From positions 14,305 through 78,304 of the IMG/VR virus record IMGVR_UViG_3300008459_000024: DNA of 64,000 bases; one strand, given 5' to 3'. Origin of the DNA: a virus. Position 1 is the stretch's first letter; every line of letters begins with the position of its first letter. Below, in pieces: positions 4,838 through 63,369 of the stretch. The notes under the pieces are model-generated. The model had not been told where the DNA came from. It ran no database searches and saw only the letters and a program-made list of their open reading frames with translations. A program made the translations under genes and the position numbers.

Positions 4838-4874
4838 TTTTTTCTATTATTTAATAAATAGTTTATCCTCAATT

Positions 4875-5945
4875 TTAAAACTGAGTTTTAATCACATTAA
4901 AGAATTTATATCCATATTCTTCAAGTGAACTAAGAGTCCTAACTTCCCCTATCCGTCTAAAGTTTTCCAAAGCACTATTCTTACCCCTTTCAACAAAAAC
5001 ATTAGATAACAATTGAGCTTGGTCTATAATATTTAAGTAAACCTCATTCTTCACTATCGGTTCGTGTTCAACAAAAGTTTCAGTCAAACCAGATGAATAA
5101 TATCTAAATATAGATGTACCGTTACTATAGTCTACATATTCCAAATCATTTATTGTGTATGCAGTATATGTGGTAGTGTTTTCAGTCATAACACCCGTTC
5201 CTCCCCCATCAATAGGAACTGAAGTCCCTAACGGAGGAAACCCTCCATAAGTTTTAATATCCCCTATTTTTGATTTAGTATATCCAGTTATAAGATATGG
5301 TAATGCAACCACCTGAACCTCAGAATCTGTTGTTGTATCTGCTGACGTATAAAAATTCATCTCAGTCGGTATTGTTGACCAAGAATTCTCAAAATTCTGA
5401 AACGTAACTGTCCCGTATGGATTATCTACCGAAGTAACTCCGTATGGTACCGTTATGTCTTTAGTCACAATGATTTGCCCAAAGGATGTTATATGAATCA
5501 ATTTGATTTCATAAGTTCCATTATCAGAATATGTGTGGTCGAAATAAGGGTTAACACTATCAATAAATTCAATCGCCGAACCATCACCCCAAGATATTTG
5601 AAAAAGTGATGTTGACAAATAATTAACGTTGGAATTCTTGGACGTATTATAAACTATAATAGAATTTAAGTCGGAGTCGTAAGGGTTTTTAATAAAAATA
5701 AAGTTTTCAGACACGTTAATCTGAGCAATGTTTCCATCAAAAACAGAATAATATCCAACGTCTTGATATTCTTGTTTTAATAAAACAGGAATTGTTAAAT
5801 TCGTCAATAAAGATGAGCCGTTTGTTCCTCCCGATAATATATACGTCAACCCCGAATAAACTCCAAAAGTATTACTATTATATGTCTCTTGTATTATATC
5901 CGAATTTAAAAAACCCGGCGATATTTGTATTTTAAAAGTTTCCAT
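4875..5945 (-). CDS. PKD/Ig-like domain structural protein
   Basis: 356 aa. ISWGDGS...HTYSDNGTYEIKL is a PKD signature. Confidence 0.65.
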   Translation of the reverse strand: METFKIQISPGFLNSDIIQETYNSNTFGVYSGLTYILSGGTNGSSLLTNLTIPVLLKQEYQDVGYYSVFDGNIAQINVSENFIFIKNPYDSDLNSIIVYNTSKNSNVNYLSTSLFQISWGDGSAIEFIDSVNPYFDHTYSDNGTYEIKLIHITSFGQIIVTKDITVPYGVTSVDNPYGTVTFQNFENSWSTIPTEMNFYTSADTTTDSEVQVVALPYLITGYTKSKIGDIKTYGGFPPLGTSVPIDGGGTGVMTENTTTYTAYTINDLEYVDYSNGTSIFRYYSSGLTETFVEHEPIVKNEVYLNIIDQAQLLSNVFVERGKNSALENFRRIGEVRTLSSLEEYGYKFFNVIKTQF

Positions 5946-11400: not shown

Positions 11401-14046
11401 GTCTCCAGATTGAGCCGAGTCTTGGAATGATAAAATCTGACCTGAAGGTAAAGAGCTAACTTTGTTTTTATCCAACACTAAAATCATAACACTATCTTTA
11501 TGATTTTTAACATCTGGATTATTTGTATTAGGCAACCAGTTAACCCTAATTTGATTATATCCTTTTATATTTCCATCTCCAAAATTTGGTACGTTATTAT
11601 AATATTTTGACTTGGTGTTAAATAAATTATATAACTCAGCCGGAGGTAAGTTTAATGTGAAAAAATATCCGTTATTTGGTGCGGGACTCCATGGGAAACG
11701 TTTTAACGTTGCTTCCGCACCTTGTCCTGTTGATGAATATCCCGCCCATATTTGTCCAACATTAATTAATTCATCTCCAGTAAATCCATTATACGGATTA
11801 GGACTTGTTACATCTATCAATATTGAGGTTTGTACGTCGTATACAGGAGCAGCAATTGACTCCGCTAAACCGTCTAATCCTGATAAATCAACACTTTGTG
11901 GGTCATCTTCAGTTTGGTCAATACCACCATATTCAGCCTGACAATTACATCGTTCACACCCATCATCAGTATATAACACTAAAGGTAATCCAATATTAAG
12001 TAGTTTCTTTGACGCTTCTTTAATTCTGTCAGCATATACTAAAATTAATATAGCAAAAGCGGTAATTATTACACCTTTAGCAATTAACGTAATTGACAAT
12101 GCCACTTGAGGAACTGGAGACGCTAGAGCTGCACCCGCATCAATGTAAAATGACGCCGCCAGTCCTCCCAGATAAATGGAAAACGCAATAATAAAAGGAT
12201 AAAAAATATTTGTTAATAAAAATGCCAATACGTGTAATATTAACATTACAGGTATAGTTAAAAACTTAAAGAAATCTAAGAAAAATGATATTATCACAAA
12301 TAAAACATCCACTCGATAAATTGCGTCGTTAGTTGGGAATGTGTTATAAGTCCCCTCACAATTAGAATCGGTAATCTTTTTAATGATTAATGTATTTCCA
12401 GCAAACCTGTTTGATTGGTACCTGTCAATTAATTGTGAGACAGTATATACTTTATTATATACCATTTCATAGAACGTATCCACACAATTAATAGCTTCGG
12501 TAGGATTTGCGTATTCATTCCAATCTAAACTGAATGCGTATGATGATTGTAATAAAAATAAATCAATCGGAACGTTATCAAAATCTATAGTATACGGATT
12601 ATTTAAATCTTCAACATCAAATGTAAAAATATAAGTTCCTTCAGTTCTTAATGTTGTACCATTTAACTGAACACCATTAGGGTCGGTAATAACTAAATTT
12701 TTTATGTTTTCAATGAATGAAAGTCTATATACAGTTTCGGATGGTAAATCAACATACACCGTTTGAGATAATACTCCTCCCTGTGGGTTTGAGGATATTG
12801 TTACCGTACTAACATTTGATTCTGAGTCAATCGGGTCCGTATCAGGTCCACTCCACCCTCTTTCTTTAATGTTTGGTAATAAGAAATAAGCCCTTTTAAC
12901 TTCTTCAGATAACTGAGGTGATTGTAACCATTTAATTTTGAATCTATATTTACCTTTTGTTGGTACCCCTAAATCAGGATTATTACTAACTCTTTGTTGT
13001 CCATATTCATCAGTATAAACATAGTTTAAGTTCATAGGGACTTCTAATACCCATGTACCATCTATGTCTATTACCTTACCGTCATTATCTAATCTATGTT
13101 CCTCTAATATTGGTCTACCATTGTCATCTGAGAATATTGTCTGTCGAATAGCAACAATTTGTCCAGGACCTGTGGTCATATCACATAACTGTCCCGCCTT
13201 TGATTTAACTTTACATTTTGAGCCTGAAAAAGAACTACCTATTTTTTTCTTATCATCAATAGAGATAAGTGACCCCATGAATATTGCGGTTGGTTGTAAC
13301 TTAATATTTGCTATTGTCGATAAATCATAATCCGTTCTTGTAATAGAGTAATTACAAACTTCAGGTTCACCATAAAATGGTTCCACTTGTATTGTTTTGG
13401 TAACAGTTATGATTTGAGGTAATTCAGAGTAATTCTCAGAGAATTTGAATTTAGTCCCGTCCACTTGGTCTTCGGTAGCCAATCCCAATCTAATTAAATC
13501 TTGTGGAGTTAAAGAGAATTGTCCAATATCTGACAAATCAATCTGCATAAACAAATCATGTTGTCCCACAGGAACTCCAAAAATCATAAAGTCACCAGCG
13601 TCATTTGTCTTTACAGTATACTTGTAATATTTGTCATAAACTTCGACAACTGATTTGTCAATTAAAGCATCACTTCTTTCAGGAAAAGTTCCGACAGGTA
13701 CGTGTGCCGAGTGAGATTGTGTATATGGTAATAAATTATACTTATAACCATCTTCGTTCACTGTAGTAAAATCTTTATAAGGATATAATACAGATATGAT
13801 TGAATTTGTTTCGTCTTGTTGTTCTAATGGTATAAAAATAGATATTCTAGCGTTTGGTAATCCAAACCCATTATTAACATAAACTCTACCGCAAACAACG
13901 CCAAACGGAGCACAAGTACGTAAGTATTCTTGTTCAGGATTAATTGACATCGACAGGATTTCAAGTGAATCAAAATTTTGTTCTAATTTTACTTGTAATA
14001 CCTTGTCTGTACCTAAATCTGACTTTATTCTAAATGAATTTGGCAT
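8467..14046 (-). CDS. large baseplate-associated protein with N-terminal prealbumin/carboxypeptidase-regulatory-like domain and internal hydrophobic segment
   Basis: 1859 aa. GVVCGRV..NGFGLPNARISI and TNDAGDFMIFGVPVG motifs; about 95-aa hydrophobic stretch at roughly aa 580-672. Confidence 0.55.
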   Translation of the reverse strand: MPNSFRIKSDLGTDKVLQVKLEQNFDSLEILSMSINPEQEYLRTCAPFGVVCGRVYVNNGFGLPNARISIFIPLEQQDETNSIISVLYPYKDFTTVNEDGYKYNLLPYTQSHSAHVPVGTFPERSDALIDKSVVEVYDKYYKYTVKTNDAGDFMIFGVPVGQHDLFMQIDLSDIGQFSLTPQDLIRLGLATEDQVDGTKFKFSENYSELPQIITVTKTIQVEPFYGEPEVCNYSITRTDYDLSTIANIKLQPTAIFMGSLISIDDKKKIGSSFSGSKCKVKSKAGQLCDMTTGPGQIVAIRQTIFSDDNGRPILEEHRLDNDGKVIDIDGTWVLEVPMNLNYVYTDEYGQQRVSNNPDLGVPTKGKYRFKIKWLQSPQLSEEVKRAYFLLPNIKERGWSGPDTDPIDSESNVSTVTISSNPQGGVLSQTVYVDLPSETVYRLSFIENIKNLVITDPNGVQLNGTTLRTEGTYIFTFDVEDLNNPYTIDFDNVPIDLFLLQSSYAFSLDWNEYANPTEAINCVDTFYEMVYNKVYTVSQLIDRYQSNRFAGNTLIIKKITDSNCEGTYNTFPTNDAIYRVDVLFVIISFFLDFFKFLTIPVMLILHVLAFLLTNIFYPFIIAFSIYLGGLAASFYIDAGAALASPVPQVALSITLIAKGVIITAFAILILVYADRIKEASKKLLNIGLPLVLYTDDGCERCNCQAEYGGIDQTEDDPQSVDLSGLDGLAESIAAPVYDVQTSILIDVTSPNPYNGFTGDELINVGQIWAGYSSTGQGAEATLKRFPWSPAPNNGYFFTLNLPPAELYNLFNTKSKYYNNVPNFGDGNIKGYNQIRVNWLPNTNNPDVKNHKDSVMILVLDKNKVSSLPSGQILSFQDSAQSGDINFGVKTGDITTPSQITVNYSNPDDFGATTLSTTYTIPIEYTSGNTTNVDNPFPADVEYFQVITGMTIGDFASIAPADANEFSYGVRYLQRLNGIDIGYRNLRYYRLDLGESEYPCYSCWYGYQGSAVKYAGESPLFDENNIEGSAIKNYDDYGIVILMRGVDPNSPRIPQQIDLSRIFGVDDYQWNSNYVVSGNFKMNIPIQSTNDSMRPASHLVNTNTNVLDKNVFFQSYSFNYNQFDNDGETLLPAYYSDIDDGGINVTYLPGTNTVFDDGGTSNVYTQTIAGELYIDSSDICSNSITNPLNNYVNAFTRYFALPYYPSGYHALNCGDAIGAKCFYNMYPNTCPDNGGRNITGYYGGENVAGASIMSMRLMNGGDEDGAHDFYNRDTPYENGKYGSPAYISTSYLKRIGSPTFTFDPWQLTSQRQVFRSDRLPTSTNVQSNEGKNYYFLHQNSTFAIFKISDAGAQQALINVTNTPTTNNESTQYFFGSNPVIESLSDCSKAVPLECYDVDADGQPIIKPNCDQLMDPSGKEKYFLKGNGCYNLVSKPFKTIPKDIKSVVEWITRLKMNLAACFEIISHTFNNQYVNGTLYTYPFRNVRVFDSNNEPYSLYCKDLVILHPSNNFYYRSSPFSTTSLTNINDGYFIGKTNSFGEDGVGNKKYLGAPTTILDLGPRDSFLQELVYSDDYDGYIVAKLKATSYQEINDILNIFILSRLINTSFLQQLIPISDDPNEGQSDPTIKALFSNTRWREDGVTLIPGFVDGDYSQMIAINSEFGIQEFSPESYNASSLYFSNANEFPYFGLFMKGNNQDRDYITPRRTIWNENTPIPPSQYDFTNIPVKSQEVPYYLWHFTGLNGTDPDTIFGTQSNNYATTYPDSSGDFSSRFFSFKYQELDRINPSSRYVQVDGNNSFYYKGYIINYDSAGNPTEVKPANNYSQTVLSNSPYHFYFGLKKGASALDKFFIKYVDTNITIE

Positions 14047-41901: not shown

Positions 41902-44900
41902 TTAAATGTTTTCAAAAGACGCTCCTGTTGGAGTGATTAAGAACTCAATGTCGATGAATTCTAACGCTTTAGTTGGTTTGATGTAAATCTTACCTACTAA
42001 TTGGTTTCTATCCAAATCCTCAGGTGTGTTAGAAACAGTTACTCTAAAGTCATATAAACCTCTATCTCTACGAATAGCATCTAAGATTGGGTTAACTGAA
42101 TCTAAGAATTGTTGTCTAACGATATTATCGTTTTGTTCAAACAATAATCTTACCGCCACCGCTGAAATCAACTTACGAGCTTGTAACAACAAACGTCTTA
42201 CGTTGATTCTATCAAGAGCTGATTCCGCAACTTGTAAAGTTTTGTTACCCCAAATTACAGTTCCAACGTCGTTAAATGTTGCAATTGGGTTAATTCTACC
42301 TTTATACAACGTATCTCTATCTTCTTGAGTTAATCTTCTTCTCGCTCTGATTGCGTTTACAACACCTCTTGTGTAACCTGCAGTTGCGAACCAAGGGAAT
42401 GCGATGTTATCAGTTAACGCTAAGTTTCTTGTAACTTCAGCAGTTGCTGGAAGATAAATTTGTGTGTTATTAACCGTATCACGAGTCAATACCCATGGAT
42501 AGTAAGTTGCTGTGTAGTTTGAATCTATACCTGAAGTTTCCAACTCGTCAACAATTTCTTGTGGGTAAATTAAATTATCCATTGAAGTTGTCGGTTGTAA
42601 TAAATCAAAGTCAGGTGATGTCATGATGTAGATAGAGTCAGCTCTATCGTTTTCTACCATGTCGATTGCCGACTCACAAAGGTTAGAGTTGTTAACAAAG
42701 TCAACACCAGGTGTAACGAACACATTAATATTAGTTACCTCAGGATTATTGAACGATTGAATACCTAACAAGTATGCGTAATAGTCAGTATTTGCATAAT
42801 CTGTAGTATTATCTTCTACCGTAATTGGTTTGAATAATCCCCATCCTGTTGAGTCGGGGTAACGTGTACAACCTGCTAATTGACCAGCTTTGTAACCACT
42901 TTGTCCTAAAACAAATGTATCACCATTAGTTCTATATTCTCTATAGATATCCCATCCGTCAAATCCGCCTTGTACTAAGAAAGTGAACTTTCTTGAGAAT
43001 ATTTTGTAATATGGATTATCAGAATTACTTGGGTCAGATTGGAATGATGCGTCACCAACCTGGAAGGCTGATTGTCCTGATGTTACATATGAGTTGGCAA
43101 TTGTTACAACAGTTGCTCCACTATCCATGTGGAAACCTTTAGTTAACTTACTCCAATCACTGTATGAACCTTCAACACACCAACTTCCTGTATAGTTTTG
43201 TTTTCCTTTATACGCGAAGAAGTCAGGGTCAAATCCAATACTGTCAGAGATACCTAAGTAAGTTCTACGAATATTGTCACCAGGACTAATTACTGCATCG
43301 TCTCCAGCAGTTGAACCGAATGGAGGGTTAAATATTTCTTCACCTGGGATATCGTAGTGAGTTTTATAGATTGGGAATGGAGAATCTTTACCTGAATAAG
43401 TACGAGTAACGTATCCTTCAAAACCACAAGGTAATGAGTCAATTGGAGCGTCAGCATTTAATTCCAACATAATGAATTTAGAATTTACTGCGAACTCACC
43501 ATCATTACTACCTACTTTTTTACCGACATAACTATTAAGACTTGGGTCCATAGTACAGTTAGTAAATTTCTCTAAAACAACAGGGTTGGCATCTGTATCA
43601 AAGTAATCTCTTACGATTAAATCAAATGTTCCATTGTTGAATGACATGTTAGCCACAGATACTTTAACTTCGTAGTTTGCGCTATTACCATCAGAAATTG
43701 TGTGAACTCTAAATAATTGATAAACTAAATTACCTCTTAATTCAGAAACAACCCATGGTGATTTTGGAGTTTGGTATCTCTCTAAGTAAAAACCTATAGA
43801 TGTAGTATTTTGGTTTCTTGCTTCAGGTAAGTAAGTTAATGACGTATTCAATCCTCTAATATACCCTTTATTATATCCGTAAGTTAACAAGTTTTGATAT
43901 CTTTCTTCAACAAACAAAGGAACTTCAGTTCTATCTTTTTCAAAGTTTTGTGTTCCGAATACCTTACTAATGTAATTTGTACTAGCCTGAGTAAATGATG
44001 TTTCAAAACTAAATGTTTGACTATCAATATCAGTACCTGAAATTACAAAAGTTGCAAATGGATTTTGAGTAATTGCGGAATATGAACCTGAAGATACTAA
44101 ACTAGCGGTGTCACCGGTTAATTGATATTGGTCCCCAAGATTTGCACTACTGAATGTTGAAATACCTCTTGAACGTAATGTGGCGATTACTAATCCGTTA
44201 TAATCTGTGTGTGCAGTAGCGGTGTAAGATAGAACTGAACCTTCGGTTGCTCCTGTGAAAGAACCGCCTCCTATTGATTGTAAATACTTAAATTCTAAAT
44301 AGAATGAATATCCACTATAACCATCTCCTGAAGTAACATCAAAATTAGCATAATACCATGCATCATTTAATCTATCACAAAAATCTATTGTGTTTGCACT
44401 GATACTTGTTACCGAGTATTTGTTTGTTACTCCGGTAATTGTTGGTAAATTCCCTAATTGTGTATTACTTAAAGGTCCGTATACTAAAGATGTTGTTGCA
44501 GATAGTGAGTTAGTTAAAACCGCAGAAGTGATAAAAGAATTAATATCTGAACGATAAGATGATGTGGTACCATCAAATTTAGTATAAACTCTATCAAAAT
44601 CTGAATATACTGTAGTTCCTGTAAAATCAACTGAGTCGGGTCCCGATGTTGAGTAGGTCACAGTTCCCGCGGTTGTCGCGGTGAAATATATGATAACTCC
44701 CGGAATTACACTACTAACTGCCACAGTTTCACAGTTAACATTACCCACAGTACTAATTGACCAAGAAGGTCCCGCATCATAACCTGATAATCCAAGTACA
44801 CGAGTTACGAAAAGTTGATTTGATTGTTGTAAATATGATTTTGCAATGTATGCGGCCTCATATTTAGGAATTTGTGTATTAACAAATTTTTCAGGAGTTG

Positions 44901-45084
44901 TTCCACCGAAATAAGTAGAAAACTCGTCATAGCTGGTAACAAAAATAGGTTCAAAGGCAGGACCTTTTAAAGTCTCACCAACAATACCTAAAGTTGTAAC
45001 ACCAACACTTTGAGAAACAAATGATAAGTCCCTTTCTGACGTGTAAACACCAGGAGAAACAAATATTTTACTGTTTGATGCCAT
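41902..45084 (-). CDS. tail sheath protein (gp18-like) with large insertions
   Basis: SPGVYTSERD N-terminus; PWFATAGYTRG, LYKGRINPI, WGNKTL, RINVRRL, KPTKALEFI. Confidence 0.95.
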   Translation of the reverse strand: MASNSKIFVSPGVYTSERDLSFVSQSVGVTTLGIVGETLKGPAFEPIFVTSYDEFSTYFGGTTPEKFVNTQIPKYEAAYIAKSYLQQSNQLFVTRVLGLSGYDAGPSWSISTVGNVNCETVAVSSVIPGVIIYFTATTAGTVTYSTSGPDSVDFTGTTVYSDFDRVYTKFDGTTSSYRSDINSFITSAVLTNSLSATTSLVYGPLSNTQLGNLPTITGVTNKYSVTSISANTIDFCDRLNDAWYYANFDVTSGDGYSGYSFYLEFKYLQSIGGGSFTGATEGSVLSYTATAHTDYNGLVIATLRSRGISTFSSANLGDQYQLTGDTASLVSSGSYSAITQNPFATFVISGTDIDSQTFSFETSFTQASTNYISKVFGTQNFEKDRTEVPLFVEERYQNLLTYGYNKGYIRGLNTSLTYLPEARNQNTTSIGFYLERYQTPKSPWVVSELRGNLVYQLFRVHTISDGNSANYEVKVSVANMSFNNGTFDLIVRDYFDTDANPVVLEKFTNCTMDPSLNSYVGKKVGSNDGEFAVNSKFIMLELNADAPIDSLPCGFEGYVTRTYSGKDSPFPIYKTHYDIPGEEIFNPPFGSTAGDDAVISPGDNIRRTYLGISDSIGFDPDFFAYKGKQNYTGSWCVEGSYSDWSKLTKGFHMDSGATVVTIANSYVTSGQSAFQVGDASFQSDPSNSDNPYYKIFSRKFTFLVQGGFDGWDIYREYRTNGDTFVLGQSGYKAGQLAGCTRYPDSTGWGLFKPITVEDNTTDYANTDYYAYLLGIQSFNNPEVTNINVFVTPGVDFVNNSNLCESAIDMVENDRADSIYIMTSPDFDLLQPTTSMDNLIYPQEIVDELETSGIDSNYTATYYPWVLTRDTVNNTQIYLPATAEVTRNLALTDNIAFPWFATAGYTRGVVNAIRARRRLTQEDRDTLYKGRINPIATFNDVGTVIWGNKTLQVAESALDRINVRRLLLQARKLISAVAVRLLFEQNDNIVRQQFLDSVNPILDAIRRDRGLYDFRVTVSNTPEDLDRNQLVGKIYIKPTKALEFIDIEFLITPTGASFENI

Positions 45085-48731: not shown

Positions 48732-48744
48732 GTATTTATTATTG

Positions 48745-50277
48745 ATGAAATCGTTAAATTTATTATCTGAGTCTTTAATACAAAAAATAACAGGGGAAAA
48801 AAGTTTACCTGAAACCAAGTTTTTTATCAACGAGATGAAAACTATTGGTATTGAAAAATTACCTTATGGTTATGCATCATTAAGAAGATTTATTGACCCT
48901 GAAACAATGAAGTTTCATTATCAGAAACACTACAAGGGTTATGTAAATAAATTAAACTCCGCATTACGAAAAAAAGATTATGGTGATGTTGAGTTAGAAA
49001 AAATTGTTAGACAAATATCAAAATATAATACAACTATAAGAAATAATGCAGGTGGTGCATTTAACCACGCATTATTTTGGAAGATGTTGTCACCCACACC
49101 TCAGAAACCAAGTGGTGATGTTTTTAACAAAATAAAAAAGGATTTTGGGAGTTATAGAGAATTCAAAGAACGATTTGAATCGGTTGCTAAAAAAAGATTC
49201 GGTTCAGGTTGGGTTTGGTTAGTTCTTAATAAGAATGGGAATTTAAAAGTTATGTCCACATCAAACCAAGACAACCCATTAATGAATATTTTTGACAGAG
49301 GAGGATTTCCAATATTAGGTTTGGATTTATGGGAACATGCGTATTATTTAAAATATCAAAACAAACGAGACGAGTATATTAAAAACTTTTGGGACGCAAT
49401 TAACTGGAAGTTCATCAATGAATTATATTTGTCAAAAACAAAAAAAGAAAAAACGATTAAAGAGTCTTACATGATTAATGAACAAAAAGAGTCGTACAAT
49501 CCTAAACGAGAAGAATCTCAAAACTATTCGTTCATATTAAGTAATAACAAACCTTTGTTATGGACATTTAGGAAATGTATCGATTCAATTCTCAAAGATG
49601 TATATGGTAAACAATATTATGAAAAAGGCGAATATGGTCCCGATGAAATGGCGGGAGTTTATGATATTAATGGGGAACAAGGACGTTCAGTTATTAATAA
49701 ATTAAATACAAATTATATCGCATTTACCATTTTACTCAATGACGTAAATAAAGCCTTAAAAAAATATAATATACCTGAAATTGAGATTATTGGTAAAACA
49801 CCTCAAGAACAACAAAAAGAGGTAAATCGATTCTGTGATTACTTGAAAAAATTTAAAAACAGAATATTTCCATCATCAAATACTTTAACAAACATAATGT
49901 CGGTATTAGGTAAAACTCACGCTTCGGGTGGTAAACTTGAATCTGAGATTGCCGATAGATTGAAAAAAGAATTTGGTGAAGATAATGTTAAGGCGGAAGG
50001 TCGATTGGGAAGTAAGGAAGATATGTCAGGTATTGACATATTTTTAACAATCAATGGTAAAACATTATCAGGACAAGTAAAACCGATTTATTCAATAGAC
50101 AAAACAGAAGATGAATATATTATCAAAATAAAAGGATTTGTAAAAAAATATTACACGGACTTACTGATTTTTGGTAACCCTAAATCTAAAATCTATATTT
50201 TTAAAAACGAAAACGTAGACTCATCAGGTGACTCATTTAAAATCCCAACCAAAAACTTGATTAATTCGTTCGATTGA
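48745..50277 (+). CDS. sod: Mn/Fe superoxide dismutase fused to a C-terminal PD-(D/E)xK-like domain
   Basis: HYQKH, NNAGGAFNHALFW, FGSGWVWL, NQD, DLWEHAYY, then about 280 extra aa with E..EDMSGID...QVK. Confidence 0.85.
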   Translation: MKSLNLLSESLIQKITGEKSLPETKFFINEMKTIGIEKLPYGYASLRRFIDPETMKFHYQKHYKGYVNKLNSALRKKDYGDVELEKIVRQISKYNTTIRNNAGGAFNHALFWKMLSPTPQKPSGDVFNKIKKDFGSYREFKERFESVAKKRFGSGWVWLVLNKNGNLKVMSTSNQDNPLMNIFDRGGFPILGLDLWEHAYYLKYQNKRDEYIKNFWDAINWKFINELYLSKTKKEKTIKESYMINEQKESYNPKREESQNYSFILSNNKPLLWTFRKCIDSILKDVYGKQYYEKGEYGPDEMAGVYDINGEQGRSVINKLNTNYIAFTILLNDVNKALKKYNIPEIEIIGKTPQEQQKEVNRFCDYLKKFKNRIFPSSNTLTNIMSVLGKTHASGGKLESEIADRLKKEFGEDNVKAEGRLGSKEDMSGIDIFLTINGKTLSGQVKPIYSIDKTEDEYIIKIKGFVKKYYTDLLIFGNPKSKIYIFKNENVDSSGDSFKIPTKNLINSFD

Positions 50278-55302: not shown

Positions 55303-55362
55303 AAATTAAACTTTTGGTGTATTAGCTTCCGAATTATAGGTCGGAGTTTACCTTCAGAATTA

Positions 55363-55391
55363 AGTTTAATAAAATAAAATCCCCTTGTCAA
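55363..55391 (-). promoter_or_regulatory. sigma70-like promoter of polB
   Basis: TTGACA-N17-TAAACT. Confidence 0.7.
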
Positions 55392-55798
55392 CAACAGGGT
55401 CTAACAATCACATAGTCGTTATTAAATGAAGTATAGTCTAAAGAAAAACTATCAATAATATTTACGAACACATCTTCTTTTAATGGTAGAACTACTTCAC
55501 CTTGTGAATCACTTAATGAAATTTTAACTTTAAATCTACCTTCTTTAGATACTTCTCTGTTCGTAAATTGATAATTTAAATAATATATGATATTTTGAGA
55601 ATTAGTTGTGGAGGCACTTGTTGTAATATAGCATGGTTTAGATGTTACCCTATATTTTTCAGTCTCACTATCAAATAACGATATATATGCAGTTACTCCA
55701 CTTAAATTTTGAATCTCATTAAAATCGCTTCTACCATTTTGAGAAATCTCAACTTGGAATATAGGTAATGTTGAATTTTTTTTAATAAACCATTCCAT
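55388..55798 (-). CDS. BppU-like Ig-fold structural protein, paralog 2
   Basis: MEWFIKKNSTLP...YQF....EGRF...VLP. Confidence 0.55.
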   Translation of the reverse strand: MEWFIKKNSTLPIFQVEISQNGRSDFNEIQNLSGVTAYISLFDSETEKYRVTSKPCYITTSASTTNSQNIIYYLNYQFTNREVSKEGRFKVKISLSDSQGEVVLPLKEDVFVNIIDSFSLDYTSFNNDYVIVRPCC

Positions 55799-55799
55799 A

Positions 55800-56165
55800 T
55801 TAGTTCACGTATTTTTTACCTATTCTTATGAATAATTTATCTTGAATTGGTAGTATTTGTGTACCACTATCATTAAGTAATGTAAATTCTCCTTCGTATA
55901 ATCCAGGTGTATTCGTATCCGAAGAGTTAAATCTATAATACACATAATACTCGGGTTTAGAGTTAGGGTCAATAAAAGTTTTTTCAACAAATCCAGATAT
56001 ACTGTTCAATATTTTGTACGACCCGTTCTCAACATTTTTCATGGAAAAATAGATGGTAGAACTCTCAATCAACGAATTGAATTCATCAATATTTGCAACT
56101 CCGTCTTTGACGTATTGCATCTTTAAGATTGGTAATGTTGCCCCTTCTGAAATATAAAACTCCAT
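55800..56165 (-). CDS. BppU-like Ig-fold structural protein, paralog 1
   Basis: MEFYISEGATLP...YRFNSSDTNTPGLYEGEF...ILP. Confidence 0.6.
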   Translation of the reverse strand: MEFYISEGATLPILKMQYVKDGVANIDEFNSLIESSTIYFSMKNVENGSYKILNSISGFVEKTFIDPNSKPEYYVYYRFNSSDTNTPGLYEGEFTLLNDSGTQILPIQDKLFIRIGKKYVN

Positions 56166-56191: not shown

Positions 56192-57859
56192 CTAACATTC
56201 TTTCCTTAAATTACTTGAATAATGTTCAAATCTATTGTGTTCAGTTGGGGTTAATAATAAAATTCCCGAACTCAATAATCCTTTTACCGTCTGTTGGTAA
56301 TTGTGGGACATTATTGTCTGTTCATATGGGTGTTGGAATTTTGTCTCTAAATAACACTTATAACTTCCTGACTTAGATAATACAATTGGCCAATTACACA
56401 AATAGATTTCACCTGAAGCGTATGGAATTCCCTTATGTGATTTTATATTGTTGAAATTTGTTTTGGGAGCGTTCTCATCAATACCTTGTTTTGGTAGTTT
56501 CTTATTTTTAGGCCAATGGATTTCTCTAAAGTGTTGTGGAACGTTGTACCAACTCCATTGGACGCTATTATCCCCATAAAATTCAGTAAAGTTCAGTTTT
56601 AAAAAATCAAATTTTTCTTTATGGACTATCTCTAAACTTTTTTGATAAAGTTTTTCGGTATATCTCAAAAACCCATTTTTACAGGATTCTCCTTTTTTCG
56701 GATAGAAGAACATATCATCCTCAAAAAAATACATGAAATCTAATCCTGTTTCTTCAAAATGTTCGGCAATCCACTGTCGTCCACCTGTAATACCTATATT
56801 GTCTTTTTTAATATGTTCAAAACCATATGTTTCACATAATTCAAGATATTTTGGGGTTGTGTCTAAATCAACAGAATTGTCTAAAAGATATTTTTTAGGT
56901 TTATCAATAAAGTCTCTATCGTATTCAATCATTGATTTAATCAAAGTTTCAAATTGATTAGGACTATTAAAGGTTATAACATAAAGAGCAACATTATTTA
57001 AATCTAACGGATTGTCAAATTGAACAAATTCTGTTTTTTTTACTAAGGTTTCATTTTTTAAATCTTCAAAAAATTTACCAAATAATCCGTTTGAATCTAT
57101 TTCAAAATAGTTAATTTTTGACGGATGTTTATAAACCATTATCGAGAATATGGATTCTTCAGTGCCCATATATCCTTTAGATAATGTCTCATTCATTAAA
57201 TTATAATAATCCGAATTAATCTCACCTATAGTATCTTTTGGACCTCCAAAAAATCCTCCTCTGGCCACTTTTTTAATATCTGAACCTGAAAACTCATTTA
57301 TTTCAGGATAAGTAAATCCATGAATTTCGTTTTCAGCATCATATGGAAAACAAACAAATGTAAATTTATCTATGTATTTGTCCAACTTTTCTATAACCTT
57401 ATCGTGTGTAAAGTATCCTGGATGTACAGTATTTGTTAAACCCGCATCAATCCAAAATAAATTATCTGAATTAAATTTGTCTAAAATTCTAGCATCATTA
57501 AGTAGAAACATTTTAGACATAACTAAAGGATTATACATATCAAGTCTTGATTGAGTCGAATCCTTTAACCATCCTGACTGATTATACCAGTTTGGGTTAT
57601 TTCGTATATTTTGTATCTTATCGTAAAAATCGTTATTAGTGAACCATGTTTTGTCACGAATAATAAATTGAGTGTTTAACACATCTCTCCTTTCCCATAC
57701 AAAATCTTCTAACTCTTTCTCACCAAAGATTATTAAGTTTTCTTCAACTTTAAGTAATTGTTCAAACTTATCTAAGTAGTGTTTAAAAGTTCGTGACCAT
57801 CCTTCAGATAGTTCGTCTCTACCAATATTCCAAAGTCCTGTAACTAATGTAATACTCAT
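56192..57859 (-). CDS. two-domain glycosyltransferase: HtrL/YibB-like plus GT2-like
   Basis: ITLVTGLWNIGR, SKMFLL, FWIDAG, GGFFGG, GTEE; second domain VITFN..DNS..FFEDD. Confidence 0.8.
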   Translation of the reverse strand: MSITLVTGLWNIGRDELSEGWSRTFKHYLDKFEQLLKVEENLIIFGEKELEDFVWERRDVLNTQFIIRDKTWFTNNDFYDKIQNIRNNPNWYNQSGWLKDSTQSRLDMYNPLVMSKMFLLNDARILDKFNSDNLFWIDAGLTNTVHPGYFTHDKVIEKLDKYIDKFTFVCFPYDAENEIHGFTYPEINEFSGSDIKKVARGGFFGGPKDTIGEINSDYYNLMNETLSKGYMGTEESIFSIMVYKHPSKINYFEIDSNGLFGKFFEDLKNETLVKKTEFVQFDNPLDLNNVALYVITFNSPNQFETLIKSMIEYDRDFIDKPKKYLLDNSVDLDTTPKYLELCETYGFEHIKKDNIGITGGRQWIAEHFEETGLDFMYFFEDDMFFYPKKGESCKNGFLRYTEKLYQKSLEIVHKEKFDFLKLNFTEFYGDNSVQWSWYNVPQHFREIHWPKNKKLPKQGIDENAPKTNFNNIKSHKGIPYASGEIYLCNWPIVLSKSGSYKCYLETKFQHPYEQTIMSHNYQQTVKGLLSSGILLLTPTEHNRFEHYSSNLRKEC

Positions 57860-58419
57860 TCTGTGTCTCTAACTTTATAAATTATGTGGTCAACAAACTC
57901 ACTTTCAAACATTTTACCTATTTCTTCGTAAAAATAAACATCACCTAAAACGTCTTCTCTAAAATTTGGTAAATTATGAGTGTTTGGAATTACTCCCATA
58001 CACTTACCAACATTTCCAATAGTAAAATCTTTTAGTTTCCAATTAATATCCCCGCCCCATTTGTGTTTAAAAATATACAATGTATTAGGATTAGTTATCG
58101 TCTCCTTAATCACCTTAAATGCTTCGGGAGTATATCTGTCATCATCATCCGCAAACATTATAAAATCACCTTCTAAATTGTTCATGTGTTGGTTCAGTAA
58201 TGGGTGTCCATATTTCCATAATTGTTCCCCTTCATTTTTAATGTGGTTAACTTTAAATTTGAAATTAAATAATTTTAAAACTTCGGAAACATATAAATGA
58301 TTAGTGTCGGATATAATTGTAAAAATATCACTCTCATCTAATTGGTCTTTAAACGATTCAATTAATCTTGGTAAGGTTATTCTACCAACTGAAGTACAAA
58401 CAATATTAATATTATACAT
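57856..58419 (-). CDS. GT2-like glycosyltransferase
   Basis: TSVGR.TL.R, IISD, IMFADDDD, GDVYF. Confidence 0.75.
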   Translation of the reverse strand: MYNINIVCTSVGRITLPRLIESFKDQLDESDIFTIISDTNHLYVSEVLKLFNFKFKVNHIKNEGEQLWKYGHPLLNQHMNNLEGDFIMFADDDDRYTPEAFKVIKETITNPNTLYIFKHKWGGDINWKLKDFTIGNVGKCMGVIPNTHNLPNFREDVLGDVYFYEEIGKMFESEFVDHIIYKVRDTE

Positions 58420-59275
58420 AACACTTTTCTCTTAGGTATTTTGATTCATCATAAATGTCTAAAATCTGTAAAAACCCCTTTTGTAAATCTAACCAATCAC
58501 CAAACTCAAATGAGTAACAACTGTCAGATTTCTTGGATGTTAGTACCGTGAGGACCTCTTGTTCACTTATTAACTGATTGTATTTTTCTAAGTAACTTGT
58601 AAAAATGTCTAAATAACCATCTAATAAATGTCTAACATCTTTAGACTTCCCACCAAATAGACATCCAGGAACTACTTTTAGTTCTACACCAAATAACGAC
58701 TGAAACCTTTCTTTTATTTCGTAATTCATAACAATTGAATTACCTTTTAAATGTATAAATCCGTGAGAATTTATTTTATCTGTAATCTTATCTAAAAAAT
58801 TCTTTGAGTTGATTATTGGAGCCATGTAATCTCTCCACCCATCGTGACATGATGTTCCTATTAATCCAGCGTCAATCCAAAATAACTTCTCACAATCAAC
58901 CGACTCATCAATTAAGAATTGTAATTTGTTTAAAACTACCTCCAAATAATTGTTAACACAATAAATTCTATCATAGTTCATTCCGCCTGATAATTCTTTG
59001 TGTCTCACTTTATCGATTAACTCACAAGAAGGTGAAGTGTTTAATTCTTTAAACTTGAATTGAACGTTAGGATAATTAAACTCATCTTTTAGATTAAATT
59101 TATCATATGAATTTTGGTCAGTGTAAATTACGTAATTATAGTCAGGAAAAATAATATTTTTTATTGTTGCAACTAATAATGGGAAATTTTTGTATCTCTC
59201 ACCGTTTCTTTCTGTTACGTAATTTAGTTCATAGATTGAACTAACTATTTTAGTACCATTTGTCATGTTCGGCAT
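58412..59275 (-). CDS. HtrL-like glycosyltransferase
   Basis: VIYTD, KLQFL, FWIDAG, GCLFGG, SEQ; paralogous to the N-domain of 56192..57859. Start uncertain. Confidence 0.7.
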   Translation of the reverse strand: MPNMTNGTKIVSSIYELNYVTERNGERYKNFPLLVATIKNIIFPDYNYVIYTDQNSYDKFNLKDEFNYPNVQFKFKELNTSPSCELIDKVRHKELSGGMNYDRIYCVNNYLEVVLNKLQFLIDESVDCEKLFWIDAGLIGTSCHDGWRDYMAPIINSKNFLDKITDKINSHGFIHLKGNSIVMNYEIKERFQSLFGVELKVVPGCLFGGKSKDVRHLLDGYLDIFTSYLEKYNQLISEQEVLTVLTSKKSDSCYSFEFGDWLDLQKGFLQILDIYDESKYLREKCYV

Positions 59276-59960
59276 AAATTATATTTAATGATTTATTTGA
59301 GTTATTACCAACATCAATTCCGTTAATTAATGCGGAAAAACACATCTCATCGATATTTCCGGCTGGTATGTTTCTTAAAGGTTTTGTTTTCTTATATTCG
59401 ATACATCTATCCCATGATGATAAAAAATGTGAAATTCTATCTTCATCAATACTGATATATTGTATACAATCTTCCGGCATAAACGATAGTTTATCCTTAT
59501 CAACAGGATTATTAAAGTACCTCTCGTACTCAACTAAACGATTACCTAACTCACTATTAGTATTAATTTGTTCTGAAAAATTATAAGTCACTGGTCCTAA
59601 AATTGAATTTTTCTTAAATGAGTTAATTATGTTTTCCTCATTGAATAGTCCGTGATTAACTCTCATGTCTGCATCTGTTAAAATAATATTAGTATACCCT
59701 AATTTAAACGCCGCAAAAACAGAGAATCTTTTTACTGAAAAATCAAAGTCGTAATAATTTTTAGCATAATTAGAGTAGTCAGGATTAAAATCATTAATAT
59801 TGAATACTGTAACAAAAGATTCTTGATTAATTTTATTAGGGTTATCAGTCATAACCACTAAACTCGGATGATACTCAGATTTACTAATATCACCAATAAA
59901 CCTATTAACTTGTTCATAGTATCTGTCTCCGAAACAGAAGGTTGCAAAACAAAATTTCAT
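59250..59960 (-). CDS. GT-A fold glycosyltransferase
   Basis: FATFCFG.RY, VMTD, KRF, ILTDAD (DxD), DE motif. Confidence 0.65.
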   Translation of the reverse strand: MKFCFATFCFGDRYYEQVNRFIGDISKSEYHPSLVVMTDNPNKINQESFVTVFNINDFNPDYSNYAKNYYDFDFSVKRFSVFAAFKLGYTNIILTDADMRVNHGLFNEENIINSFKKNSILGPVTYNFSEQINTNSELGNRLVEYERYFNNPVDKDKLSFMPEDCIQYISIDEDRISHFLSSWDRCIEYKKTKPLRNIPAGNIDEMCFSALINGIDVGNNSNKSLNIIYAEHDKWY

Positions 59961-61204
59961 AATTTACCACTTAATCTTTCACACCATCCTTTAGATTCTG
60001 AGTGAGGCCACACAACCCAGTAAGATGGTTTTTTATTTGTATCAAATGACCTCCATATTTTACCATATCCATCAGGGTCATTTAAAATTCTATTAACTTC
60101 TCCTTTTTCAGCGTCTTTTCTGAAAAGAGTCTCATCGTTCTCATCATGGAAGGCAACAACCCAAAAATCATAGTCTGGTTCAGGAACACTACTAAATGGA
60201 ATATCGATACAATGTTTAAAAATAATTGAGAATGAATTAATCCATTCCTCCTCAGATTCATAATCATATGAACATGGTGGGTATTCTTTATCTATGGTCG
60301 CCCTTTGTACTCCTCGTTTTGAGAATAAAATACCGGAATATTTTTCATAGTCTCGTAATGTTCGTTCAGACCCAAAACCGTATTTACCAAATTCCATAGG
60401 TTCTTCACCATCCATACCAAATAAGGACCTGTTTTTTTTGTGACAAAACTCATTTTTCTTACCCCATTCTTTGTCATCGTCCCATTGTTTTGTCCTTCCA
60501 TTACGAGTATATTCATGCCAAATTAATGTCTTATGAGGGTGAAATAAATCATAACCATGAGTATAAGCTCTAACCGCAATTGAAATTTCTTCCCCGTGGA
60601 AATAGTATTCAGGGTCATGCTGAACCTCTTCTGAGAATTGTCCTAAAGTGAAACAAAAATGGGCCGAGTAGAATCTTGAAGGGACGGGTTTAGTTAACTG
60701 TTTATAGTTAGGAATTGTTTCAGGTAAAAAGAATATCGCACCTTCAGGGATAAATCTATCAAAAACCATTCTCCATGGGTCGTATACTCTATCCTGAGGG
60801 TCATTGTCGGGATTGAATGATGAAACATATGAAGTTAGTAACGGTTTTTTATATCCGTCTTTTTGTAGTTGTTTAATCATATCAATTAGTTCAGTATCCC
60901 ACCCACCTGCAAATCTCATGTGAGAATCAATTTGAAGTGTGTATTCCTCACCATTATATTGTTGTTGGATTAAGTTTCTTGCCCAACAAGCACCTTTAGA
61001 TTCGGTGTAGGGAATGTCGATAATTTTAAAACGACTATCGTTTCGATATTCATCTAAATTATCAAATTTGTCATCTTCATGATATTGTCGAGCAATTGAG
61101 AAAACCAAATTCTGTGGGGAATTTGCCATTTTAATTGCCGACTGTATAGTTGGTATTAATTGCGGGTCCCGATAAGATGCAATTTGAATAAAAATCCTAC
61201 TCAT
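59957..61204 (-). CDS. GT60-like (Skp1 GlcNAc-transferase family) glycosyltransferase
   Basis: IFIQIASYRDP, SKGACWAR, LQIDSHMRF..WD, FHGEE...RAYTHGYDLF.P, WHEY. Confidence 0.85.
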   Translation of the reverse strand: MSRIFIQIASYRDPQLIPTIQSAIKMANSPQNLVFSIARQYHEDDKFDNLDEYRNDSRFKIIDIPYTESKGACWARNLIQQQYNGEEYTLQIDSHMRFAGGWDTELIDMIKQLQKDGYKKPLLTSYVSSFNPDNDPQDRVYDPWRMVFDRFIPEGAIFFLPETIPNYKQLTKPVPSRFYSAHFCFTLGQFSEEVQHDPEYYFHGEEISIAVRAYTHGYDLFHPHKTLIWHEYTRNGRTKQWDDDKEWGKKNEFCHKKNRSLFGMDGEEPMEFGKYGFGSERTLRDYEKYSGILFSKRGVQRATIDKEYPPCSYDYESEEEWINSFSIIFKHCIDIPFSSVPEPDYDFWVVAFHDENDETLFRKDAEKGEVNRILNDPDGYGKIWRSFDTNKKPSYWVVWPHSESKGWCERLSGKL

Positions 61205-61245
61205 TTTTTCTTTTTGTTGAAAAAATAAATAACAATCAATAATAA

Positions 61246-63369
61246 TTAAATAGTGAAGGTAACTTTTAATGTTTGGTCAATACCACTAAAATAGAAATAG
61301 TAATTAGAGTTCTCATAAGTTGTGGGAGTAACAACATTACTAAACGATAATCCATTACCAACATAAGTTCTATTAGGATATGTTGCTGATGAATATGATA
61401 GATTAAAAATTTGAGAACTTAGAGTAGTTGAGCTAAATTTAATACTTGTACCATTACCACTATAACCAATATCATTAATTAGAGTCGTTGTGCAGTTTGG
61501 ACATCTGTAATCAAATAAACTAAACGTGTTTTTTAATATGTCAAAGTTGTGAATTACTTCAGGGTATGATAATGGTTCGGTATACATTCTAAACTGAGAT
61601 ATCGCACCATCAAATGAACCGGCAAAATTTGGTTCTATAAATATATCTGTCGTTAATGCGGATAATGAAGTACCTGATAAAGTTTGGTTTGGCATACACT
61701 CAGGGTCCTGTTGGTAGGTTAGTCCTGATAGGGTTTGAGGACATGCTGAAAAAGTTAAACTTTCTCTTAATCCTTGTGTTCCTCCTCCCCATGAAATATT
61801 AAATGGTACACCTATTTGTTTTTCTTTTTCTGTGTTTAAACCTCTAGGTATAACTTCCTCAAACCCATTTATTACATAAAATAATCGACCATTAACATAT
61901 AATTTTAAAGAACCTAATCTATAATCACTCTCAATTAACCATTTTTCATTTAAATTAACAATCTCAACTTGTTCAGGTACTGTACCATCAATTTGAGTGT
62001 ATGGTGGTTGAATTAAACTTACAGTATTTTGAGCCAATGAGTTCACATAATATGTGTTTGAAATAATGTCCAATCCTCCTCGGTATAATAAATCACAGTT
62101 ATCAAAGTATGTATTTCTTTCCCATACACAATCAACTAAAAACCAATGTTCTTTAGTTAGAAATCCTGGGTTCACATCTGAACAGTAATTAAAAATTTGA
62201 TTACTTGAACAATATTCAGTCACCGTATACCCTGTGGTATATGTTATACCTGAAGTATCGCAACTACCGGTTGTTTCACATCCACCTGTGAATTTTAATA
62301 CTTTAACACAAATTTTAGGATTTTTAGGGTCGCCTGACAATCTAAGTGAAAAAGTATTAGACATCGAATCGTATAACGGGTCCTTATCGGGAGATTCGAC
62401 AGTTGTTTCAGAACACCCACAATTACAAGTTGTATTATGTTGGCTAGTATAAGTTGTTGGTTCGTAAATATAATCTAAACATCTCGATATTGTCTCGGCG
62501 GTGTTACTACAAGCACAAGTCGATAAACATCCCGATAACGAAGATGTTACTCTTGTATAACCCGAATCAGATAAAGGAGACCCTGTAACATGATGATAAA
62601 ATTTATTCTCAGCTCTGGTTCCAAAATAGAAAAACGTATTATCATTTTGGGGGTAGGTTAAATTAAGAGTTGTTTGAGCCGACGTAGGATAATACTCATC
62701 TTCCTGTCTGGCTCTTAATAACATTTCAACCGACCATCCTAAATTACATCTATTTGGAAAAGTTTCATAATCATACCCAAATAGTTTAAAGAATCCTTGG
62801 TTAAACCCTCCGTATAATTGATTATATATTCCTTCAGTCCCTCCGCTTTTTGATACAATATTATAAACAGTTTGTTTAGTATTACCACTAAATCTATCTG
62901 AATTTGTTGTGTAGGCGGTTATTGGTATTAACTTAGTTCTCCTGTCAAAATGGTATCTATCCCATTTACTTGTACCGGTATATAATCCCATACTGAAATA
63001 TATGGTTTCACCTGACATTTCAGGAACTAATCCATTATCAATACCCGTTAAACCAATATCACATAAAGTATTTCCAGTATAACAACTTAAATCAACATTG
63101 TTAGGATTATAGTAATTTAATGAAACTAATGTGTTACCACTTATAAACGACCCATAGTTTAAATTAAATAATTGAGATGAGTTAGCATTATTTAAATCAA
63201 AATAAATTGGTAATCGATTACCATCATTTACCCCGATAAGTTCGGTTGAAAAGACAACTTCTTCATTGTAATCTTTTTCATCTGAAGACAATGAAATATC
63301 GAAAACTTTTCTTACTGGTTTAATATACCATTTAGGGAAATTGTATTGATTTATATTCTGTTGAGCCAT
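61246..63369 (-). CDS. Cys-rich LamG/concanavalin-like virion protein
   Basis: 707 aa. WSVE, LKLYVNG, FDGAISQFRMY..PLS..EV..NF; about 21 Cys. Confidence 0.65.
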   Translation of the reverse strand: MAQQNINQYNFPKWYIKPVRKVFDISLSSDEKDYNEEVVFSTELIGVNDGNRLPIYFDLNNANSSQLFNLNYGSFISGNTLVSLNYYNPNNVDLSCYTGNTLCDIGLTGIDNGLVPEMSGETIYFSMGLYTGTSKWDRYHFDRRTKLIPITAYTTNSDRFSGNTKQTVYNIVSKSGGTEGIYNQLYGGFNQGFFKLFGYDYETFPNRCNLGWSVEMLLRARQEDEYYPTSAQTTLNLTYPQNDNTFFYFGTRAENKFYHHVTGSPLSDSGYTRVTSSLSGCLSTCACSNTAETISRCLDYIYEPTTYTSQHNTTCNCGCSETTVESPDKDPLYDSMSNTFSLRLSGDPKNPKICVKVLKFTGGCETTGSCDTSGITYTTGYTVTEYCSSNQIFNYCSDVNPGFLTKEHWFLVDCVWERNTYFDNCDLLYRGGLDIISNTYYVNSLAQNTVSLIQPPYTQIDGTVPEQVEIVNLNEKWLIESDYRLGSLKLYVNGRLFYVINGFEEVIPRGLNTEKEKQIGVPFNISWGGGTQGLRESLTFSACPQTLSGLTYQQDPECMPNQTLSGTSLSALTTDIFIEPNFAGSFDGAISQFRMYTEPLSYPEVIHNFDILKNTFSLFDYRCPNCTTTLINDIGYSGNGTSIKFSSTTLSSQIFNLSYSSATYPNRTYVGNGLSFSNVVTPTTYENSNYYFYFSGIDQTLKVTFTI

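Follow-up and report, generated by a model that had tools for sequence, protein, structure and literature searches.

The operon considered here probably serves the cytoplasmic O-glycosylation of a phage's own surface proteins, namely fibres, adhesins and baseplate appendages, before or during assembly. It occupies positions 56192-61204 of a 64,000-nucleotide stretch of viral DNA (the window), which spans bases 14305-78304 of the linear, 78,304-bp IMG/VR record IMGVR_UViG_3300008459_000024. Five minus-strand open reading frames (ORFs), genes A to E, follow one another head to tail with overlaps of 4-26 nt, which bears out the original prediction of an operon of five overlapping genes. We favor this reading because the genes are placed beside fibre and baseplate genes in two distant phage lineages, co-occur with (TPTx)n linkers (PT linkers), enclose a variable, O-antigen-like middle section and, in the cultured relative XacN1, accompany virion proteins that stain with periodic acid-Schiff reagent. 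The enzymes themselves point the same way, since gene A belongs to glycosyltransferase (GT) family 60, gene E carries two GT-A domains like those of bifunctional glycan extenders, the enzymes are predicted to be soluble, and the operon has a TATTTAT element in common with the sheath and other structural genes.

The record represents part of the genome (about 300 kb) of a freshwater jumbo myophage, because complete genomes among its close relatives measure 294-322 kb, it encodes a tail sheath of 1060 amino acids, and the stretch was recovered in lake and freshwater shotgun metagenomes from at least six studies. The contig has a GC content of about 32% and a CheckV completeness of 27%; the absence of a gene from it therefore says little about the whole phage. 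A megablast search with the region returned no match among 50,697 phage records, and relatives can be found at the protein level only. Gene E has relatives in at least 525 viral contigs in IMG/VR. The cassette comparison described below covers the best 80 loci of these, the survey of PT linkers 83 loci, and the count of architectures the 71 complete cassettes.

The order of the cassette is constant across phages, with the GT60 gene first, the E fusion last and, directly after E in all 80 loci, a protein with a putative baseplate-anchor domain. Between the GT60 gene and E lie one to eight exchangeable genes, and 29 architectures occur among the complete cassettes. The transferases found in this middle section include GT25, GT10 fucosyltransferase-like, GT7-like, PLOD-type and RXYLT1-like enzymes, and its methyltransferases resemble rhamnosyl-O-methyltransferases. 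The flanks in relatives hold collagen-like tail fibres, Laminin_G_3 proteins annotated as 'virion structural', DUF285 proteins, glycine-rich tandem paralogues and anchor-domain proteins of up to 442 amino acids. In a group of loci (L005-L009, L026, L052 and L066), some relatives have a collagen-like tail-fibre gene at the cassette, and others have a PLOD-type GT together with GT25 in it; in animals and in Mimivirus, collagen hydroxylysine is glycosylated by enzymes of these types.

A homologous cassette is also present in the cultured jumbo phages XacN1 (ORF334-330), Xoo-sp13, CM1 and RAS14. It shares with the contig the succession of GT60, variable gene, HtrL-like gene, small gene and HtrL+GT fusion, and its proteins are 45-50% (A; ORF334 in XacN1) and 40-42% (E) identical to those of the contig. 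At position 2, these phages encode a 765-amino-acid carbamoyltransferase where the contig has gene B. They further differ in their hosts (Xanthomonas and Stenotrophomonas) and in lacking the two small anchor-domain proteins that follow the operon here, homologues of which were found in neither XacN1 nor Xoo-sp13. The XacN1 cassette is placed just after the baseplate wedge genes and the gene for a 3313-amino-acid protein; RNase H and DNA polymerase genes are nearby, and an adjacent GT9 gene has its best match in the host. In the XacN1 paper, ORF334 and the neighboring GT9 gene are the only GTs named, ORF333 is called a carbamoyltransferase, ORF330-332 are hypothetical, and ORF334-330 are not described as one cassette (PMC5852040). 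The same paper reports periodic acid-Schiff-positive glycoprotein bands in XacN1 virions (Supplementary Fig. S4), which its authors suggest are the work of the phage's own GTs (PMC5852040).

A candidate acceptor for such glycans can be found in the PT linkers. At 70 of the 83 loci surveyed, one or more proteins with a long (TPTx)n linker are encoded within 10 kb of the cassette; the carriers are fibre, LamG, DUF285 and anchor-domain proteins and never the enzymes. Stretches coding for TPTxTPT were counted with a codon-neutral DNA pattern, for which reversed-pattern controls gave 0-1. XacN1 and Xoo-sp13 have 51 such stretches each, CM1 has 22 and this contig 14, and four large IMG/VR relatives hold 3-58 copies each of a longer TPT pattern. 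None was counted in RaK2, 121Q, RSL1, phiKZ or phage G, all without the cassette; richness in PT linkers was seen in 7/7 cassette-bearing genomes versus 0/5 cassette-less jumbo phages. In XacN1, the stretches sit in large proteins beside the sheath and baseplate genes. On the contig itself, two proteins of 831 and 332 amino acids have (TPTx)n linkers of 37-73 residues and are its only candidate mucin-like acceptors. The correlation between cassette and PT linkers is suggestive of (TPTx)n as the acceptor. In protists, GT60 enzymes start mucin-type O-GlcNAc on Ser/Thr-rich domains (PMC8724618).

Gene A, found in 70 of the 80 loci, was taken for GT60-like in the original prediction. In agreement with this, it scores 233.6 bits (E=6e-69) with PF11397 (GlcNAc, GT60), for which the cut-off is 21. 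The match falls into two stretches, the best of which covers profile positions 92-349 of 352, and about 120 extra conserved C-terminal residues follow the Pfam domain. A second match is to phrog_24687 (2.7e-176), and PHROG files the family under 'moron, auxiliary metabolic gene and host takeover'. Across 28 homologues (mean column identity 79%), D92-S93-H94 is invariant and presumably forms the metal-binding catalytic motif of the DxD/DxH type. No usable match among PDB sequences came from phmmer and profile searches with A, B, E and the anchor domain, and no GT60 structure was found. As had been predicted, the enzymes lack transmembrane segments: hydrophobic segments are absent from all five (maximum Kyte-Doolittle 19-residue mean 1.14) and from the three flanking proteins. 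Relevant papers on GT60 or HtrL in phages did not turn up in a literature search.

Gene E was expected to be a fusion of HtrL and GT2-like domains, and both the domain search and the predicted structure support this. Residues 2-251 match PF09612 (HtrL_YibB) with 51 bits (cut-off 24.1; 2e-13). The scores against TIGR02192 (67.3 bits, cut-off 264.9) and NF008462 (36.5, cut-off 342) are far lower than required, and by these profiles gene E is a distant member of the HtrL/YibB family and no YibB orthologue. An AlphaFold model (pLDDT confidence score 78) contains two GT-A domains. The first, residues 1-267, has a fold similar to GT6 enzymes (Z about 13, root-mean-square deviation 3.4 A, about 195 residues aligned). 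The second, residues 282-547, is similar to GT2, GT12 and GT27 enzymes such as B4GALNT1, BcsA, GalNAc-T2 and RmlT (Z 13-14); it bears an E-D-D-M motif and has no Pfam GT2 match. The whole chain is most like the two-domain proteins LARGE1, LH3, K4CP, PmHS2 and Mimivirus R699.

The three middle genes can be classified with varying success. Gene C has zero Pfam matches; it can be recognized as HtrL-like, in line with the earlier assignment, through its homology to the HtrL domain of E (residues 109-253; BLASTP 1e-6). It also groups with the HtrL family in cross-locus clustering and is 24% identical to XacN1 ORF332 (5e-7). Gene D, found in 18 of the 80 loci, passes as GT2-like by a small margin (PF00535, 25.0 bits against a cut-off of 23.3; 2e-5) and shows a weak match, below threshold, to the PglI model of NCBIfam. 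Beyond this and the sub-threshold YibB matches, the NCBIfam scan added nothing. Gene B yielded zero matches in Pfam, PHROG, NCBIfam and PDB sequences. Its family numbers 511 homologues, all without a Pfam domain (204 representatives at 50% identity). Both Asp residues of the D96-x-D98 motif of gene B are invariant. Some relatives are fused to methyltransferase domains, and a Pfam scan of distant relatives found no GT family. Weak leads from a language-model atlas are to GT6, GT8 and Nucleotid_trans clusters, i.e., retaining GT-A families. A relation to the E family was rejected at an hhalign probability of 0.1. Judged from the DxD motif and the atlas leads, gene B is probably a GT-A transferase, an identity that the original prediction had assumed and that we could not confirm.

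The operon stands at the border between a block of fibre and baseplate-type genes and a replication block, because two anchor-domain proteins and a 707-amino-acid protein flank it and genes for PolB and endonuclease VII come next (Table 1). Further on, an SNF2 helicase and a superoxide dismutase fusion are encoded on the other strand. The statement that the operon is embedded among structural genes is thus half right. Neither of the two small anchor proteins, of 121 and 136 amino acids, has a Pfam match, and they are paralogues (BLASTP 1e-11). A model of the 121-residue protein (pLDDT 82) was matched by Foldseek to proteins containing the BppU N-terminal domain (E about 1e-4, template-modeling (TM) score 0.47-0.58) and to T5/DT57C and NF5 baseplate proteins (E about 1e-3), although minor tail proteins are matched too and the fold is a generic immunoglobulin (Ig)-like sandwich. 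The earlier description of this flank as BppU-like may hold at the level of the modeled fold and finds no echo in Pfam. In relatives, the domain heads proteins of 121-442 amino acids. The 707-residue protein upstream of A was likewise described as LamG, for which the evidence is weak: one of eight family members matches Laminin_G_3 (PF13385) at E=0.042, and the protein in the window does not. An attempt to relate its family to LamG proteins by hhalign was discarded, as only the PT linkers aligned. Family members in other loci have C-terminal (TPTx)n linkers, and the protein is probably a fibre or adhesin. Clear LamG proteins (4.7e-26) do occur upstream of the cassette in other loci, not always adjoining the GT60 gene.

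Table 1. Location of the operon, its flanking genes and related features (window coordinates unless marked as record coordinates).
Feature	Position	Strand	Description
TATTTAT	61225-61231	-	Promoter-like motif
Gene A	59957-61204	-	415 aa; GT60-like polypeptide HexNAc (N-acetylhexosamine)-transferase homologue; conserved first cassette gene
Gene B	59250-59960	-	236 aa; unclassified family, probably GT-A with DxD; exchangeable middle gene
Gene C	58412-59275	-	287 aa; HtrL-like GT-A domain standing alone
Gene D	57856-58419	-	187 aa; small GT2-like transferase; exchangeable middle gene
Gene E	56192-57859	-	555 aa; fusion of HtrL/GT6-like GT-A and GT2-like GT-A; conserved last cassette gene
121-aa protein	55800-56165	-	BppU_N/Ig-like baseplate-anchor domain; own TATTTAT; right after E in 80/80 loci
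136-aa protein	55388-55798	-	Paralogue of the 121-aa protein; in 80/80 loci
707-aa protein	61246-63369	-	Cys- and Ser/Thr-rich, variable; upstream of A; own TATTTAT; no Pfam/PHROG match
Further TATTTAT starts	45123, 41843, 39430, 14064	-	Examples
831-aa PT-linker protein	record 3078-5573	+	Upstream of window; locus L003
332-aa PT-linker protein	record 12103-13101	-	Upstream of window; locus L003

The TATTTAT predicted to precede the operon lies 27 nt before the ATG of gene A and is a genuine upstream element. Of the 41 copies on the contig, 18 are found in sense at most 45 nt upstream of gene starts, compared with a mean of 2.5 and a maximum of 8 in shuffles and with a single copy in the opposite orientation. 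Counted by gene, 18 of the 56 starts on the whole contig have it in sense at a distance of 9-39 nt. The sheath and other structural genes have it in front, as do gene A and the 121- and 707-residue genes. Among relatives, it is seen before anchor-domain genes (46/63), members of cluster c4 (24/26) and the superoxide dismutase fusion (19/24), and not before the SNF2 or endonuclease VII genes.

A second short motif, [ST][GA]xT, was considered as a possible glycosylation sequon. It is more frequent than in composition shuffles in the 707-residue protein (13 versus 1.5) and in the sheath (11 versus 2.8), as well as in flank proteins of other loci, for instance in cluster c23 (250 versus 40 expected). 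Its contexts correspond to a recurring repeat of the L-P-L-S-G-G-T-x-T-G type, which we take to be a tail-fibre repeat. For this reason, the motif is treated as a structural signature and not as evidence of a sequon; the two explanations are confounded, and a structural fibre repeat accounts for the enrichment at least equally well. In the sheath (window 41902-45084, minus strand), 10 of the 11 copies are located in an insertion region at about residues 134-335 and none in the conserved C-terminal core.

Which acceptor and sugars the proposed pathway uses, in what order its enzymes act and what it does for the phage are inferred as follows. Gene A would transfer the first sugar onto Thr/Ser hydroxyls, most probably at the (TPTx)n mucin-like linkers. 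The middle enzymes would extend the glycan, namely B, C and D in this phage, GT25, GT10, GT7, PLOD-type and RXYLT1-like enzymes and sugar O-methyltransferases in relatives, and the carbamoyltransferase in XacN1. Gene E could add two more sugars, one by its GT6-like half (of the retaining type) and one by its GT2-like half (of the inverting type), or, like LARGE1 and K4CP, it could build an alternating repeat. The resulting glycan may shield the linkers from proteases or stiffen them, or it may change adhesion and recognition. A cytoplasmic pathway of initiation and extension on proteins had already been proposed for this operon; it is still the best reading in view of the placement, the PT linkers and the stained XacN1 bands, with the acceptor and the timing as its more conjectural parts.

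Several observations weigh against O-glycosylation of virion proteins. The 64-kb window holds no PT-linker protein, and the two on the contig lie upstream of it. The correlation with PT linkers represents about two independent phage lineages and hand-picked control phages, and linkers of this kind, frequent in the proteins of environmental phages, do not have to carry glycans. In relatives, TATTTAT is also found before PolB, at about -60 (within 110 nt in 21 of the 29 distinct upstream regions); it was therefore rejected as proof of late expression. Other observations could speak for a different target. HtrL/YibB, GT25 and the GT9 neighbor in XacN1 are families known from lipopolysaccharide (LPS) loci, PolB adjoins the cassette in most relatives, and the second domain of gene E has sub-threshold matches to models of DNA glucosyltransferases.

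An envelope glycan of the host is an unlikely target, though the strongest of the alternatives. Here, soluble GTs would act on lipid-linked intermediates of LPS core, O-antigen or capsule at the cytoplasmic face, and the product would serve superinfection exclusion, progeny release or a non-covalent coat on the virion. HtrL/YibB is named after the LPS-core gene cluster of E. coli, and gene E is in that family, yet far under the YibB equivalog cut-off (67 versus 265 bits). The resemblance of E to the polysaccharide polymerases K4CP and PmHS2, the GT25 'LPS biosynthesis' and PglI-like matches among the middle genes and the host-like GT9 beside the XacN1 cassette would all fit, whereas the invariant first enzyme comes from a family that glycosylates polypeptides. 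No priming phosphoglycosyl transferase, flippase, polymerase or ligase was found in the cassette and the neighbor clusters scanned, which were not all of the clusters. The original prediction had held the lack of transmembrane segments against LPS modification; the segments are indeed missing, but peripheral cytoplasmic GTs of such pathways likewise have none, and lipid-linked work at the cytoplasmic face is still compatible with this. The cassette is carried by Xanthomonas and Stenotrophomonas phages and by 32%-GC freshwater phages alike. With hosts and GC contents this different, a phage-borne acceptor fits better than a host-specific lipid-linked one.

Glycosylation of phage DNA, that is, hypermodification of bases with oligosaccharides against restriction, is very improbable. 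On this view, the cassette would lie beside replication genes for a reason (PolB in most relatives; in XacN1, RNase H and DNA polymerase are near), and its changing gene content could also reflect an arms race with restriction systems. GT60 enzymes are not known to act on DNA. The C-terminal domain of E does match the TET-associated glycosyltransferase model (TAGT, PF20691; E=0.0096), but the 16.3 bits fall short of the cut-off (27.5) and come from the generic DxD region only. A match to the model for beta-glucosyl-HMC (hydroxymethylcytosine) alpha-glucosyltransferase is also weak (8e-4; phrog_842, of which no single stretch passes). A precedent can be found in phage YerA41, with a bulky, possibly oligosaccharide thymidine modification (PMC9023294). 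The DNA of XacN1 was mapped by digestion with BssHII, NaeI and SpeI and sequenced normally (PMC5852040). The present stretch was recovered from ordinary shotgun data in at least six freshwater studies and at least 525 assembled contigs, whereas the DNA of YerA41 is reported to have resisted such handling. The contig contains no Tet/JBP or thymidylate synthase homologue, and the original prediction used a lack of base-modification genes as an argument, which fails for a linear contig of 27% completeness. In a complete relative, the homologue of thymidylate synthase has the PCH and FNIAS motifs of a canonical ThyA (314 bits). A Tet_JBP search in relatives gave no match, nor did it in the control genomes, and is thus uninformative. 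In two relatives (G001 and G002; loci L085-L088), the homologue of thymidylate synthase gives matches in two to three separate pieces within long open frames, which suggests that an intein, intron or homing element has been inserted.

Least probable of all is a non-virion target in the cytoplasm, such as a host factor, defence protein or metabolite glycosylated for take-over, as the PHROG category of the A family and the founding GT60 member Gnt1, which modifies the cytoplasmic regulator Skp1, might suggest: up to ten enzymes, methylation or carbamoylation and 29 architectures are out of proportion for one target, and the constant fibre and baseplate placement and the PT-linker correlation would be left unexplained.

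Glycosylation of phage surface proteins by this cassette can be compared with systems already known. Virus-encoded glycosylation of virions or capsids occurs in mycobacteriophages and in the chlorovirus PBCV-1. These and the giant viruses have in common with the cassette virus-encoded, soluble cytoplasmic GTs, multi-domain GTs and enzymes that combine GT and methyltransferase domains. The cassette differs from them in its GT60 initiator, in its candidate acceptor (PT linkers as opposed to capsid, tail-tube termini or N-linked sites), in being modular and hypervariable, and in belonging to jumbo phages of Gram-negative, probably aquatic, hosts. The two-GT-A-domain fold of E recalls LARGE1, K4CP and PmHS2. 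LARGE1 pairs a retaining with an inverting half, and E seems to do the same, judged from the families that each half resembles. The domains are oriented differently, so that whole-chain TM-scores between E and these proteins reach only 0.2-0.3, and the N-terminal domain of E is part of the uncharacterized HtrL/YibB family. Mimivirus R699 is an enzyme of fibril and collagen glycosylation (PMC9546862, PMC12279948). Together with LH3, it is matched by the model of E, and relatives of the cassette have PLOD-type GT and GT25 genes beside collagen-like fibres.

In the case of GT60 itself, gene A shares PF11397 and a D-x-H type motif with the CAZy polypeptide alpha-GlcNAc-transferases Gnt1/GntB of Dictyostelium and OGNT of Trypanosoma cruzi, and it is predicted to be soluble like Gnt1. 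Those enzymes act on Ser/Thr-rich domains (PMC8724618), and (TPTx)n is plentiful in the phages with the cassette. Gene A differs in its viral and prokaryotic setting, its C-terminal extension and its position in an operon with extension enzymes. A tentative, somewhat less than even proposal is that a widespread group of jumbo phages runs a mucin-type O-glycosylation of prokaryotic viruses, in which GT60 seeds HexNAc on the (TPTx)n linkers of fibres and adhesins and an exchangeable, O-antigen-like set of extension enzymes and a bifunctional cap complete a strain-specific coat that evolves by cassette swapping. Virus-encoded virion glycosylation is itself of a known type; new here would be the start by GT60, the modular make-up of the cassette and PT linkers as candidate acceptor.

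Glycosylated phage particles have been documented in few systems only. If the cassette glycosylates fibres, hundreds of environmental jumbo phages would carry a modular, fast-evolving sugar coat, with consequences for host recognition, for the stability of particles and their resistance to proteases, and for how visible therapeutic phages are to the immune system. The uncharacterized HtrL/YibB family and two unnamed protein families would then gain a testable function as well. The proposal can be tested now, as XacN1, Xoo-sp13, CM1 and RAS14 are in culture with a homologous cassette.

Two further features of the neighborhood were noted. A conserved leader precedes the PolB start, at window 55303-55345 (minus strand) between the 136-residue gene and PolB. 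It takes the form A-A-G-G-T-A-A-A, a 5-bp hairpin and A-G-C-T-A-A-T-A-C-A-C-C-A. Compensatory double changes are seen at all five pairs of the hairpin in 20 sequences, and the outer GGT...ACC changes jointly to GAC...GTC when compared by eye. By analogy with the operator on T4 gene 43 mRNA, the leader may be a translational operator. The superoxide dismutase fusion, a 511-residue protein at window 48742-50277 (plus strand), starts with a complete Fe/Mn superoxide dismutase (Sod_Fe_N and Sod_Fe_C), after which come about 280 unassigned residues; it has TATTTAT upstream and is kept in 39 related loci.

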